DNA of 64,000 bases, taken from positions 9,176,001-9,240,000 of the forward strand of contig CM097886.1 of the NCBI GenBank assembly GCA_044892525.1, given 5' to 3'. Below, in pieces: positions 5,382 to 44,948 of this stretch (the stretch's first letter is position 1; each line of letters starts with the position of its first letter). The position numbers and the translations under genes were made by a program. The notes below the pieces were generated by a model. The model was not told where the DNA came from. It was given only the letters and a program-made list of their open reading frames with translations, and ran no database searches. This stretch comes from Schmidtea polychroa (lineage: Eukaryota).

Positions 5382-8300
5382 TGTTGGCGTATGTGGGGAA
5401 AAGAAAATATATAGGCATGATTATCATACACATCAGGTATCATTATTCTACTCAGACCATTCCCTCACACACTCCAAATGATCATTCGTATATTCCCACG
5501 TATGAGCCCGTGGTGATGTTCCACGTTGGTACTGCTCACACGGGTTGGAAAGAGTTAGCAGGTGAGCCCCTGCCTTAGGACTACTCCTAACCCTTTCTCG
5601 GTTCGGGTTCTACGGTGCTTTAGAAGGTCTTACCCATTCTTTACGCATCATTCGGTCCGACCCTGGTCCAAAAGGTACGACATTTAAGTTTCCACTATAT
5701 ATTCATGATCCTTCTCTCATGCAATTCAACCGTAGCAAATCATACATACAATTAACACAATCAAAGAAAATCGAACAGTTATATTAGAACGAAACATCAA
5801 ACTACATTCAGCATTATTTAAATAAATACAAAACATTAAAGATTAGTCACGAGATAATGTCGCTTCTTCAAGTTCGTTCGTAATAGCAGGGGAATCGAGG
5901 CCCGAGAGGAAATTGGCTACGAGAATGCTTCTCCTTCTGCGAGCATCTCGTCGATGTCAACGGGCAACCGGCGGTCTTCGAGGAATTTGATACTGTCGGC
6001 CGGAACTACCCGGAATACTTCCTTTGTAGGAATGGAATGGGTAACTGTAATTTCCTTGATAGTCGATTTGGCTGCAGATAGCGATGCTTCAAGCGCGGCC
6101 ATGGCGTTTCTACGTTTCTGATTTTTTTCAGAACGCGTCAGCCGCTTACGCTTTCGATGGGGGAGTGTAGCTTCTGCTGGGGGCTGAATGAGGTGTGGCA
6201 CGAGTACTGGAGCCAAGATAGGGTCCGATGAACCGCCAGCCATATGCCGATAGCCAGAAAGAACTGGGGCGGGAATTGGCGGCAATTGTGGGCCATGCCC
6301 TTTACAACTGGATGTTGATGAGGTTTCAGCTGATTTGTGGTGCATTGGGAACACGTTAGTCCCATCTTGTATCGGGTACTCACGAACTCGCTTCGCTAGT
6401 TCTGATTCGGAATACACCTTGTGCAGTGCCTCTGATTGGGCCTTTATGGTTAGCCTCTGGCACCTGCTTTCTTCCAGGAGACTGTCACGGAAGTGCTCCA
6501 AACGCAGAATCTTGCTCTTCTCCTCCTTCATTTGTGGTGGGGTGAACCACGTTCCCTCATAGAGGTCAATTCTCTTCTTCAATTCCCCGATGTACAAGTG
6601 GAGCTGTGCGATATCGGCATTTTTATCAGCACAGGAAAAGCAAGGTCTGAGGGTTTTCCCGGAACTGGTTGAGGTATTCATCTAAATTGTTAAGAAATTT
6701 TTATTTTTAAATTGAAAAATTCGCTGGGGTATTGTTCATATTTTCGGAAAACGAAATTTAAGATCTCCCGGACCAAGTTATCCAAGAGTGGCCTACCAAT
6801 CTACCCCGTCGGCAAATACTCACCTTCATGCAATCTCAAACATCCAAACTAACCCATGTAATCATTACTACTTTATGAGAAGAAAACGGGATTCATGAAA
6901 ACAATTCATTATGCTAGCTTTTAGGTTTACTTTACGGGTTTGACTATTTTTAACTACTGCATGACTGTTAATTCGTTACTATGAACGCTATTATCTTAAT
7001 TATCGGTGTTACATTTTAACAATCATATTTTACTCATTTTGCTGCTACGTCATCAAATTCTACGCGTGCTGTATGACGAACGGAAAATCGGCAATTACCG
7101 GGACACCCCGTCTTGTATGTAGACCCCTCGGGTTTGTAAGAAAATCATAATACTCTCACTTAAATTTTTATCATGGATTATAACTTAGTTATTTCAAATT
7201 TAACGCCATAAACATCGTCATAGTGACGCTTAAATCGGGCGCAGTTATGTGTTCATTTGATTGTCTATCTATACCATCAACTATCGACGGGTTCGTTACG
7301 ATGCATGTTGGTGCATTTAACTAGCGACTTGCACACTGACAGAAAAGAAGATTCTCGTCGCACTGCTATTTTCTCTGACGCAATCTAGTGGTCTACTAGC
7401 AGATACAAGTTTACGACTCTCTACCTATGGTCAGGTAATAATGATATCCACATGTGCACTGTGACCTAATTTGAGTGTGATGCATGTGTACATGTGGGCT
7501 AGCGATTAATAGAGGTAGAGTTGTAGATAGATGCTCCAGTTGAGACGGACACTCAGTTGGGGTGTTCAAAACTCAAGAAACTTGATTGTGTGAGTGACTT
7601 GCGAATTCAGTAGATAAAAATTAACTCTATATTCTAGATTTTCGCTATTAGGTCGACTCACGATAAGACCACTCAATACACTCGATCGACTGCCGCCTTC
7701 CTCAATCGACTCACTAGATGACTTTATCAAATTATTAGCCGATTTTCCCCGTCGAAAATTTATCTGGCCATGGGCAACTAATGATCCTCCTATCGCTATT
7801 GATATCTTCACTCGGACTCACGGCAAGTGATTCATTTCCTTATCAAAAAATTTGTTTACTTTCCCATTTTAGACGAGCCGCTGTCAACGTCAAACCAAAC
7901 TTTATCAGATATTCAATGTCAAGCTAAAGTCTAAATTAGTCAATGAATGGGTTTACTCGCTAATGTCCCTGCAATGTACATCTCGGGATTCAATTTTTAA
8001 ATGCTTAGCAGAACTTCCCGGTGAAAACTCTAACAATTCATCGCCCATCCCTACTCAGACATCTATCGATATTCGACGGAAAAGCAAATTTTCCTGACAG
8101 TAACGAACTACTGATCTCTATCCGAAAAATTGTCTCCGACTTTGGAAATTTACATTATTTGCTCTGAAACTTCGACGTGACTTCATGAAAAAAACGAAAG
8201 ATCCTCTATCAGATCGCGCTCGATGTGAGAAATTCCACTTCCAACAGTATTCCACCTGCGGAGTCTCCTCACCCCTCATGACCCACCCAAGAAGGCAATC

Positions 8301-9570
8301 ATCTCTGCCGCCGTTCTTGCATCGTCATGAGGGACCGTTCGACTCGTTTTTCACAAAATCAACATTTAATATACAATTTATGAATAATAAAATGAATGAA
8401 TGAATCAAATATCAGCAAATGAATCAATAAAAATAAATGAATCAATAAAGCTCACCCGGCGACCCTATCATTTGGACTCCAAGTATGATGTTATTCATTC
8501 CACACAACCGCAGCCTCATCATACCCTTGGTGGATCTCTCATATGATAAATATCCTTCTCTGCAAATATCACATTCTCATTTTCAGCATCTTCGGGATTT
8601 CTTATGAAGGTCAACCTTCCCACTGTTGTGTTCTCTACCGTGGTACATTTCCAACTCGTCCACATCATACTGGGAGCTCTCAGATGGTACAGTCGCCGGC
8701 ACCATGAAGAAAAGGCCATTTGTATTTAAATAAATTTATTTTACGAAATGAGTTTTGTTTTTCATCATTAATAAATTAACTAATACATATAAATCAATCA
8801 GCCTACCGATAGTTTCAAAAACTGGAACGAAATCGAATTTGAACTGGTCTCGAATAAATTAAAGGTAAGTTCTGAAAATCTCTGGAATTAGCGTTTGCGA
8901 TTCTAGTCCTGAATTCGGTGAAATATCTGAAGTCTATGCTCTGTAATCGTGAAAAATTAAAAGTGGGTCATAAGTTTTTCTAAAATTTTACCTGTAATCG
9001 TGAAAAATTAAAAGTGGGTGTCGTCTAATTTTTCACGTTACATATATAGTATTTTTTCGTCCAATCAGGACGCTACCTGCTTGTATTTTTACTATTTATT
9101 ATTATTTTTATGTTTTTATCATCGTATTTTAAATTTTTAATGACCTGACTTATCTCTTATTATTATTTTATTTATTTTTCTTATTTTTCTTATTTTTCTC
9201 CTATTTTTTCTGCGGACTTATTGTTATTTTATTGTAATATCATTTTTTTGTTTTAATTAGACTTAAGATGGTTTTATTTTTATTTATTTTCTTAAATTCC
9301 TCGTTTATTTGTTTTCACTTTTTTACTTATTCTATTTCTATTTTATCCGCTGTGTACCTTAACCCGTTTTATTTCTAAATCTTAAGGGGTTTATTGGATT
9401 TTATTTAGTTTGTTTACTTATTCTTATTCTTTTATTGTTATTTTATTGTTCCTTCCTATTTACTAGTGAGATTTTTATGGTACTTTATATTTTTATCTTA
9501 TTTCATTTATCTTTCGAGGTTTATTTTTCTATTCGCTCCAGTTTTCTCCACTCCGCATTTTAGCCTAACA
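5382..9570 (-). repeat. 3' LTR (4189 bp)
   Basis: Direct repeat of 44974-48344. Ends are tgttggcg and gcctaaca. Confidence 0.95.
5917..6681 (-). CDS. LTR-encoded 254-aa protein (coiled coil, EGTWF motif, basic NLS-like RKRKRL)
   Basis: Intact ORF. ATG is directly preceded by TTCTTAACAATTTAG. A diverged homolog lies at 50833-51755. Confidence 0.65.
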   Translation of the reverse strand: MNTSTSSGKTLRPCFSCADKNADIAQLHLYIGELKKRIDLYEGTWFTPPQMKEEKSKILRLEHFRDSLLEESRCQRLTIKAQSEALHKVYSESELAKRVREYPIQDGTNVFPMHHKSAETSSTSSCKGHGPQLPPIPAPVLSGYRHMAGGSSDPILAPVLVPHLIQPPAEATLPHRKRKRLTRSEKNQKRRNAMAALEASLSAAKSTIKEITVTHSIPTKEVFRVVPADSIKFLEDRRLPVDIDEMLAEGEAFS

Positions 9571-9801
9571 AATCACTCCGGGGCCCGTTAAAATTGCGCC
9601 CCGCAATTCACATACTATCATCCATTTAAATCATACTTTCTTTCGGCATAACAACTAATTTCACAGTCAAAATTCACACAAACATAAAATCAAAATAACT
9701 AAGTAATACTTTAATTAAACAGATAAAAGGACAAATATATGCAAGCAGTGGCCACTTTAGGTGACCGGATTTATACACACAAAGTTTATGAATAGTCGAT
9801 G

Positions 9802-44019: not shown

Positions 44020-44499
44020 CTAGTTGAAGTAGACCGTGTGTTTCTCTTTTATCACACACGCACATAAAGAACAGCGGGTTAAGGCAACTACGCATTCATC
44101 ACAGTGGCTTAGATGTCCGCAAGGTAATATCAACATTCTGCCAGGTCGCGTCTTACAAATGTTACAAGTTCTTAATGCCGCTGCTTTCTCTTCGATCAAG
44201 ACTCGTATTCGCTTGGACAAAGTTCTCACTTGTTCGCGTATTCTTACGTATTCGATATTCAAGTCGGGATCGTCGAGACGCTGTTGAAGCCATTGGTAAT
44301 GGATGGACGAGTCAGTGTCGGTATTTGTTGATCCTAATCTGTCGGTTAGAAAGTTTTGTTTGGATATCAGCGGTGCGTTGTGACGTTGTTGTTCTAGGAG
44401 TTCTATTTGTTTCAGTTTCTTTTTTAAAGTCTTTATTGAGTCATTTTCTATGTCGACGAATCTGTTTAGCTGTTGTAGATGTTGCCTAGCTTCTGACAT
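44020..44499 (-). CDS. 159-aa coiled-coil plus IAP/MDM2-type C-terminal RING protein
   Basis: CNICKTRPGRMLILPCGHLSHCDECVVALTRCSLC..I...TVYFN at the extreme C-terminus. Confidence 0.88.
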   Translation of the reverse strand: MSEARQHLQQLNRFVDIENDSIKTLKKKLKQIELLEQQRHNAPLISKQNFLTDRLGSTNTDTDSSIHYQWLQQRLDDPDLNIEYVRIREQVRTLSKRIRVLIEEKAAALRTCNICKTRPGRMLILPCGHLSHCDECVVALTRCSLCACVIKEKHTVYFN

Positions 44500-44948
44500 A
44501 TCTGAATAAATGTATTGTTATTATTTGTTCTTACTAGTATTAGCAATAATATTATTACGTTGTATTTAATATTCGTTTCTCTTTTATTTGTTATTGTTTC
44601 TAGCTTTCGTATTTTATTTAGTCTTTAACAATCCCCCGTCGTATTTTTGACTTTAATCATTTAATTTTATTGTCATTACTTTCTTTGTCTCCCCTTTTTA
44701 ATTTAATAAATTAAAATTAAACAAAGTAACTAATTCCCGTTTCCTTCTCTCATCATACTCTATCATATTCATTCATACTCATTTAGGTTCATCTTTATTC
44801 ATACATGCTCTATTTCAGTTCGTATCATCATTCTATTGCATTACAATATCGATTCGTTTCAGTCCCGATTCCATTTTTAATCATACTTAATTAAATTGTT
44901 AATCTAACACATCATAACACAATAATAGGTAATCAACAAATCGAATTC

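Follow-up and report, generated by a model that had tools for sequence, protein, structure and literature searches.

How can a retroelement express cargo genes whose start codons lie behind tens of upstream ATGs, or past pol? This question is raised by a minus-strand long terminal repeat (LTR) element at positions 5382-48344 of a 64,000-nt stretch of the Schmidtea polychroa genome (GCA_044892525.1, contig CM097886.1, positions 9,176,001 to 9,240,000 of the forward strand), hereafter termed the window. Judged by its sequence, the element is a Burro-like giant Ty3/gypsy LTR element, distinct from Burro1 strictly defined. Planarian genomes contain an abundance of Burro elements, one of which was reported to protect stem cells via its IAP cargo (PMC13465017, citing Lee et al. 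2026), and Burro RNA was reported to increase upon piwi knock-down (PMC8532177). Published work is cited here as far as the excerpts available to us go, and those excerpts give no account of how cargo open reading frames (ORFs) in such positions are expressed. A first-pass annotation of the window had proposed that the accessory ORFs each start just past a splice-acceptor-like YAG, and that their mRNAs are made from one LTR promoter by alternative cis-splicing or by spliced-leader (SL) trans-splicing. Here we argue that an ORF within the LTR is cis-spliced from a donor in the LTR leader, and that the other accessory ORFs and gag-env-pol are likely spliced from the same leader to acceptors of their own, a reading to which we assign a probability of about 0.65. 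The donor and acceptors are named to the exact position, which makes the question testable.

Leader and Splice Donors in the LTR

The LTR carries a compact promoter and leader with the following features (^ marks a predicted splice point).

47795..47840, minus strand: ATTGG (CCAAT) box, TATA box and predicted start site, conserved across 16 aligned LTR stretches; 3' LTR copy at about 9021-9066
47715..47765, minus strand: 51-nt mini-intron from donor D1 (CAG^GTAAAA, 47765) to TACAG, which arose by tandem duplication
47581..47714, minus strand: leader exon 2, 134 nt, without an ATG
47575..47583, minus strand: donor D2 (TCG^GTAGGC, 47580); 3' LTR copy at 8806
47509..47514, minus strand: AATAAA, predicted R/U5 poly(A) signal inside the D2 intron, 66 nt past D2; 3' LTR copy at 8740

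The predicted start site reads TCAGT or TCTGT in other LTR types. LTR types that are unalignable further downstream share the same layout, namely CCAAT, TATA, D1, a duplicated unit of about 50 nt ending in TACAG, an ATG-free stretch, D2, and an AATAAA 48-106 nt on. This order could be parsed in 63 of 80 promoter-bearing locus hits, with the AATAAA 48-106 nt past D2 in all 63; the other 17 were 13 repeats of six deletion-bearing LTRs, one with a changed D1 and three unparsed, some LTRs having been fetched twice. At the place of D2, otherwise unalignable LTR types read GTATG, GTAAG or GTAAAT.

It was D1, at 47765, that the first-pass annotation had offered as the donor for the ORFs, and this part of its proposal probably does not hold. 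Nineteen LTRs lack the G after the D1 exon: 17 of them continue into leader exon 2 and have thus lost the mini-intron, one has a point change and one a rearranged repeat. Because none of the 19 joins the D1 exon to an ORF start, we consider D1 the donor of the leader mini-intron and reject it as the main donor, since it is seen paired only with the acceptor 51 nt away. The joined copies described below use D2 at 47580, which is likely the major splice donor. Relative to the earlier annotation, the donor is therefore moved from 47765 to 47580 and an acceptor ahead of gag (42500) is added.

Intron-Less Copies of the LTR ORF

The clearest case concerns an ORF that lies in U5 and begins directly at an acceptor.

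5917..6681, minus strand: LTR ORF, 254 aa, with a basic stretch and a YAG^ATG start
6682..8806, minus strand: 2125-nt GT-AG intron from D2 to the LTR-ORF acceptor TTTAG^ATG; its homologue is absent from the spliced copies

Of 38 sequences, 36 keep the YAG^ATG start; the 37 nt ahead of it, by contrast, sort into 11 types only 37% alike, nine of which end in YAG. In an unrestricted search of three D2 types for exon ends not followed by G, 127 LTRs had GT at this point and four lacked the G, all four being deletions from D2 to just past an AG. In the first spliced copy, L067, exon 2 is directly joined to the LTR-ORF ATG, and the sequence on either side matches that of its sister L066 at 95-96%. 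L067 is without exactly positions 242-2409 of L066, a 2168-nt GTATGT...TTTCTAG intron, sharing AG only at the junction, and the mini-intron is absent too. The deletion starts at a GT and ends at one of three YAG^ATG sites among 89 ATGs in 4 kb. Since this solo LTR keeps its U3 and has a 4-nt target duplication, it must have passed through reverse transcription and integration. The same join of exon 2 to the LTR-ORF ATG is found in both LTRs of another provirus (L097/L098, 99.8% alike), whose sister L109 is 99.6% alike over 258 nt and then reads GTAAGT. At the level of sequence, L067 and L097/L098 indicate fossils of spliced RNA from two independent integrations, and hence that the LTR ORF was expressed by cis-splicing from the LTR leader donor; we regard splicing from D2 to this ORF as close to certain. 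By way of control, two internally deleted proviruses end in 7-9 nt microhomologies and not in GT-AG.

Three further LTRs (L069, L070 and L071) join D2 to an AAG about 100 nt downstream, by which the AATAAA is removed, and one provirus has this join in both of its LTRs, which match each other at 100% over 2278 nt. They are weaker evidence, because 3 nt are shared at the junction and template switching could produce them. As for the product, the LTR ORF had no Pfam match and no Atlas match above 0.83, and its likeness to ORF 51147 was confined to the basic stretch.

Candidate Acceptors Ahead of RING, gag and the 3' ORFs

The candidate acceptors of the internal region, with the ORFs they precede, are as follows.

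44020..44510, minus strand: acceptor TTTATTCAG (AG 44503-44502) and IAP-type RING ORF, 159 aa, without BIR (cIAP1/XIAP RING, E 3e-8)
41837..42515, minus strand: acceptor TTTTTTCATTGTAG^42500 and a 664-nt ATG-free leader ahead of the gag ATG, absent from the first-pass list
14115..14480, minus strand: acceptor TTAAG (AG 14477-14476) and 119-aa ORF (14474)
12641..14040, minus strand: acceptor TAATTATAG (AG 14033-14032) and TRAF ORF, 462 aa (RING, zinc fingers and MATH by Pfam)
11385..12436, minus strand: acceptor GTTATTCAG (AG 12429-12428), CAG or TAG among copies, and 345-aa coiled-coil-like ORF (12422)
10494..11219, minus strand: acceptor TATTATAG (AG 11213-11212) and ORF 11208, split by a stop in the window copy (108 + 91 aa)
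9802..10452, minus strand: acceptor TTTTCGTATAG (AG 10443-10442, or 10440-10439) and 211-aa ORF (10437), with a 224-aa variant elsewhere

All nine motifs quoted in the earlier annotation were recovered on the minus strand where it had placed them, once each, except that CAGGTAAAA is additionally found at 8994 and 16815. Its claim that the accessory ORFs start just past a YAG is borne out for six of seven, the seventh (14474) having AAG, in line with its description of TTAAG as weaker. The comparison with other ATGs that it had suggested was run: a YAG lies 0-5 nt before the ATG in 6/9 element ORFs vs 130/697 other sense-strand ATGs (Fisher P=0.002), or vs 4/38 ATGs with equally AT-rich upstream DNA (P=0.001), both P values being post hoc since the 5-nt limit was derived from the annotation's own examples. 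The three of nine ORFs without a near YAG are gag (41836), 14474 (AAG) and 10769. The last was rejected as a gene of its own; it is the C-terminal part of ORF 11208, a single frame of 233-254 aa in most other copies.

Conservation was followed in 20 3' and 20 5' regions, picked for diversity from the 40 scored per search. All seven tested acceptor AGs are invariant (12-20 mapped copies), compared with 13/32 other AGs in the 3' spacers and 63/169 in 5' non-coding DNA, counts that are not independent given that the copies are related. Changes at the acceptors stay within the consensus (CAG or TAG, TATAG or TGTAG, TTTATTCAG or, in another subfamily at RING, TTTTTTTAG). Genome-wide, among the matches listed, the TRAF acceptor keeps TAG in 100/100 (108 found; TTATAG or TTGTAG), the RING acceptor keeps YAG in 99/100 (116 found; the one exception is a point change) and the 14474 acceptor keeps TAAG in 99/99. 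A RING copy with TTTTTG ahead was considered as a D2 junction and rejected, being a point change with the primer site still in place. The acceptor-to-ATG spacing varies among copies, being 2 or 3 nt for 11208 and 5 or 6 nt for 12422, as expected of a non-coding leader; in the 345-aa ORF a second AAG directly abuts the ATG. Host introns inferred from exon pairs (5/8 gave a clear short intron) are 42-53 nt long and have similarly AT-rich acceptors, e.g., TAATTTGTTATAG and TATATATTTAG. Usage of an acceptor with Y at -3 and an invariant AG is seen for the LTR ORF in its spliced copies; the acceptors of the other ORFs were recognized by sequence features only.

Upstream ATGs provide a second line of argument. 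Between the TATA box and the LTR-ORF acceptor lie 55 ATGs, and between the primer site and RING lie 19, so that plain scanning cannot reach either ORF. The gag acceptor at 42500 is T-rich, with its AG in 20/20 copies, and the 664-nt leader that follows has no ATG, vs 8.4 expected by base composition and 2.3 by dinucleotides; the 1519 nt ahead of this acceptor hold 31 ATGs. In 18/20 copies the gag start is the first ATG past the acceptor. Cis-splicing from D2 to RING and gag is in our estimate probable. An 80-nt tandem repeat of variable copy number lies between RING and the gag acceptor (43194-43440).

Several observations weigh against splicing of all these ORFs from D2. Both ORF-joining fossils are limited to the LTR ORF, and no junction to RING, gag or the 3' ORFs was found among the matches listed in donor-side and acceptor-side genome searches; likewise, D2 joins in window-type and L014-type LTRs numbered 0 in genome searches (L014-type total uncounted). 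The window D2 matches the U1 consensus at only 5/9 positions. Loss of the mini-intron is ambiguous because dropping a single repeat unit gives the same result, the L097 junction has one base (exon position -2) that its nearest sisters do not share, and the three short D2-to-AAG deletions have the shared 3 nt noted above. At the 3' acceptors the pyrimidine tracts are weak, D2 is about 20 kb or more away, and stronger acceptors come first. Finally, the invariance counts overstate the evidence, the copies being related. As to the missing fossils, an RNA spliced from D2 to RING, gag or a 3' ORF would lack the primer site; such fossils are therefore not expected, and their absence says little. The earlier proposal of alternative cis-splicing from one LTR promoter is supported directly for the LTR ORF (6681), through two independent spliced genomic copies; for RING, gag and the four 3' ORFs no junction was seen in these searches, and either cis- or SL trans-splicing may apply.

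Contigs from sequencing runs, of which 12 were listed and none is on record as RNA, were weighed neither for nor against splicing. Among the joints viewed at window 5300-15300 (4 runs; 15 of 37) and at L014 (run X1; 15 of 17 joints, 6 of 153 loose ends), no GT-AG join fell at a predicted site, which is not counted as evidence. In X1, one joint stops at the start codon of the 345-aa ORF, with no donor on its left side and the intervening letters unread; another links U5 to the 3' cluster and, with 4 nt shared, reads as a deletion derivative.

The 3' Cluster and Alternative Explanations

Past pol, five ORFs form a 3' cluster with spacers of 56-218 nt, which have a GC content of 0.24 and TATATA-like runs. 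For these genes cis-splicing from D2 is the simplest reading, and we favor it by a narrow lead over doubt. Its closest rival, which we consider unlikely yet well worth stating, is mixed processing, where D2 cis-splices the LTR ORF, RING and gag, and the cluster is resolved like a flatworm operon by host SL trans-splicing at the same acceptors. The spacers fall within the <=300 nt used for flatworm operon candidates (PMC12582326), flatworm acceptors are often common to cis- and trans-splicing, and SL trans-splicing was reported in Schmidtea (PMC12582326, PMC10899757). Once D2 has been used at the gag acceptor, moreover, no free donor is left upstream of the 3' acceptors, and AATAAA occurs in 3/5 spacers. 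However, the AATAAA ahead of 10437 is only about 18 nt from the AG, and two spacers are without one. Flatworm leaders were also reported to end in ATG (PMC12582326, a statement on parasitic species), and such a leader ATG would be out of frame for RING and TRAF (2 nt), 14474 (1 nt) and 10437 (1 or 4 nt), with a frame that varies among copies for 11208 and 12422.

An improbable alternative is that each 3' accessory ORF, or the whole cluster, has an internal promoter as foamy tas/bet do, the AGs being start-site or translation-context elements; in a variant, one promoter further upstream could feed spliced 3' mRNAs. Foamy viruses use an internal promoter (PMC7828637), and the AT-rich spacers (GC 0.24) with their TATATA-like runs would suit one. 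Yet these runs are only 15-20 nt from the ATG, a distance at which a TATA box could not place the start site ahead of it, and internal promoters leave unexplained the interchange of CAG and TAG, the T-tracts ahead of RING and gag, and the fossils. Least of all do we credit chance, with AG-before-ATG as a product of A-rich DNA and the joined copies as random deletions: a YAG lies within 5 nt at 19% of all ATGs, about 40% of other AGs are likewise invariant and internal deletions are common in the family, but YAG^ATG persists in 9/11 unalignable upstream types, the L067 deletion runs from GT to YAG^ATG and a second lineage has the same join, so that this reading is already contradicted for the LTR ORF.

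The spacers have a further property that may bear on the fate of these mRNAs.

10457..14628, minus strand: ten TGTA(A/T)ATA motifs of the Pumilio-element type, all in the five spacers of the 3' cluster

The ten motifs fall in 707 nt of spacer, vs 0 in 10,822 nt of coding and 0 in 4,882 nt of other non-coding DNA; 2000 shuffles gave a mean of 0.7 and a maximum of 4, none occurs antisense, and each of 20 copies has 7-11. Two caveats apply, in that the motif was picked out post hoc and the spacers may be related to one another. The motif agrees on the sense strand with the Pumilio consensus UGUAHAUA (PMC5580656), from which we infer possible Pumilio control of the 3'-cluster mRNAs. A reading of TGTA as a CFIm poly(A) element is disfavored, because planarian poly(A) sites were reported without UGUA (PMC5068929). 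Two spacers, at 14083-14097 and 10457-10474, have a common block TGTAAATAA(C/T)TGTAAATAAAAAT, and for this reason the spacers may derive from one duplicated cassette.

The Element and Its Surroundings

The remaining landmarks of the element are these.

44974..48344, minus strand: 5' LTR, with TGTT...AACA ends (self-BLAST against the 3' LTR)
5382..9570, minus strand: 3' LTR, 4189 nt, with a predicted short R and a U5 of about 3.3 kb that holds an intron and an ORF
44949..44966, minus strand: primer-binding-site-like sequence 7 nt past the 5' LTR, which we take to be of the tRNA-Pro type
14642..41836, minus strand: gag, ubiquitin-like part, mononegavirus-type fusion protein, and a polyprotein region with protease, reverse transcriptase, RNase H, integrase (PR-RT-RH-IN) and ankyrins (Pfam)

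By self-BLAST the two LTRs are 99.8% and 98.2% alike in two blocks; the 5' LTR is shorter by about 800 nt through a deletion with 6-nt microhomology, which includes the LTR-ORF acceptor and start. The target duplication is ATAG (4 nt). With TG...CA LTR ends, a target duplication, a primer site and the order PR-RT-RH-IN, the element agrees with Ty3/gypsy. A Pfam scan of 18 proteins recovered gag, ubiquitin-like, mononegavirus-type fusion, protease, RT, RNase H, integrase and ankyrin domains, with TRAF and RING on separate ORFs. The window copy of the polyprotein region is disrupted by frameshifts and two nested non-LTR insertions; env (PF24664 matches) lies between gag and pol, and at a natural locus, L118, env and pol form one open frame of 3330 aa. 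Copies are numerous in the AT-rich 781-Mb genome (of 397 candidates, the 40 scored are 91-100% alike), and without nested inserts the total length is about 30.5 kb, with an LTR of 4.2 kb and an LTR-to-LTR spacing of about 26.4 kb in many copies.

These properties agree with Burro/GYPSM1 in length (~30 kb with multi-kb LTRs), the in-frame env between gag and pol, and the TRAF/MATH, ankyrin and RING domains. The strict Burro1 arrangement was not seen, as no BIR domain was matched by Pfam in the 18 proteins scanned and MATH is on a separate 3' ORF. BCL2-like and dUTPase-like motifs gave no Pfam match at E 0.01, a GGW-containing stretch in ORF 28205 being BCL2-like by eye only.

Of the nested copies, one non-LTR retroelement with an Ulp1-like protease and RT spans 29969-38976 and is flanked by 329-nt target copies (29640-29968 and 38977-39305) that are 100% identical, an unusually long target duplication; its two long ORFs share a frame with a single TGA between them (35824-35826, minus strand). 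A second copy of the same family (98% alike), 5'-truncated, lies between env and protease (21350-25360, minus strand). Across L011-L050, LTR types are 65-75% alike or unalignable in U5 and internal regions are 88-99% alike, which suggests LTR swapping among subfamilies. Paired accessory clusters 26.4 kb apart on one strand (G000:C2:107327875-107356392 and C1:72665388-72691808) are as expected of tandem elements with a shared LTR.

Outside the element, the first-pass annotation had listed one more acceptor, at 52371, which is present and belongs to a different repeat family.

52006..52381, minus strand: TAATAACAG^A-ATG and 121-aa ORF, in a different high-copy repeat

This ORF is intact in 7/16 fetched copies, 6/7 of which have a YAG 1-2 nt before the ATG. 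A separate two-ORF repeat (50439-52460, minus strand), possibly the U5 half of another large LTR, is split in the window copy by a 440-nt insert with terminal inverted repeats (51303-51744), and 60500-63800 contains several satellite-like arrays, whose repeat units measure about 14 and 30 nt.

Proposed Expression Scheme

We propose that transcription would start behind the CCAAT/TATA promoter, at the predicted start site, and give an ATG-free leader of 150-250 nt, with an optional mini-intron of ~50 nt, that ends at D2. Lying 48-106 nt ahead of the LTR AATAAA, D2 might suppress early polyadenylation in the 5' LTR in a foamy-like manner (PMC3694450), if this poly(A) signal is used. D2 would then join one of at least seven acceptors, so that the first ATG becomes that of the LTR ORF, RING, gag, 14474, TRAF, 12422, 11208 or 10437, its use for the internal ORFs being predicted from their acceptors; cis donors are reported to out-compete the spliced leader (PMC4558846). 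Splices to internal acceptors would remove the primer site, and the RNA translated into polyprotein would then be distinct from the one packaged as genome. On our reading, translation of the polyprotein would rely on a spliced mRNA, and packaging on a second RNA that is less spliced. Splices that end in U5 would keep the primer site and could occasionally be reverse-transcribed, which is why intron-less LTR copies arise.

Under this scheme, expression of cargo may be uncoupled from that of the replication genes and, for the U5 ORF, may even proceed from solo LTRs; intron-less LTR copies can also reveal retroelement splicing from DNA alone. Our literature search found no description of Burro splicing, although Lee et al. 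2026, Grohme et al. 2018 and the supplements were outside it, so a prior description is possible. More tentatively, and at somewhat less than even odds, a gypsy-lineage invertebrate element may have independently evolved the programme of a complex retrovirus, with a foamy-like R donor, at least seven acceptors, a gag-env-pol mRNA distinct from the packaged genome, a masked 5' poly(A) site, and apoptosis/TRAF cargo under host Pumilio control in stem cells.

Comparison with Known Systems

The closest likeness is to Burro/GYPSM1 (PMC6431247), which shares a length of about 30 kb without nested inserts, a Gag with CCHC knuckles, a ubiquitin-like part, a mononegavirus-type fusion protein between gag and pol, PR-RT-RH-IN, ankyrins, TRAF/MATH and an IAP-type RING, and accessory ORFs are mentioned for the group. 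It differs in that TRAF is here a separate ORF downstream of pol, whereas it lies in the polyprotein in S. mediterranea and upstream in D. tigrina, and in that the window RING is without BIR and the element carries four further 3' ORFs and an ORF in U5. The Burro polyprotein is uninterrupted over about 4,900-5,100 aa from gag to ankyrins; the window copy is broken, and loci were read singly.

Flatworm SL operons (PMC12582326) likewise consist of same-strand genes <300 nt apart with an acceptor ahead of each downstream gene, but here a conserved cis donor lies upstream, already used, and the leader ATG would be mostly out of frame. The BARE plant retrotransposon has separate RNA pools for translation and replication (PMC3735527); it is a plant element with a single ORF, and the part of that source consulted notes no series of accessory acceptors.

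In foamy viruses, the major donor sits within the LTR ahead of the poly(A) signal, the spliced mRNAs form families whose first exons are small and non-coding, and accessory ORFs precede the 3' LTR (PMC3694450, PMC7828637). A donor upstream of the poly(A) signal was found here in 63/80 locus hits. In contrast to foamy viruses, the present element orders its pol domains in the gypsy manner and shows no sign of an internal promoter, its gag appears to need splicing, and its U5 holds a 2-kb intron and an ORF. HIV-1-type complex retroviruses, and errantiviruses for their env mRNA, likewise use one 5' donor with several alternative acceptors just ahead of start codons. In these viruses the major donor lies past the primer site and unspliced RNA serves as the gag mRNA, whereas D2 lies ahead of the primer site. 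HIV regulatory genes are expressed from spliced mRNAs (PMC7828637). By analogy, the element would seem to work like a foamy or complex retrovirus while not being a member of either.

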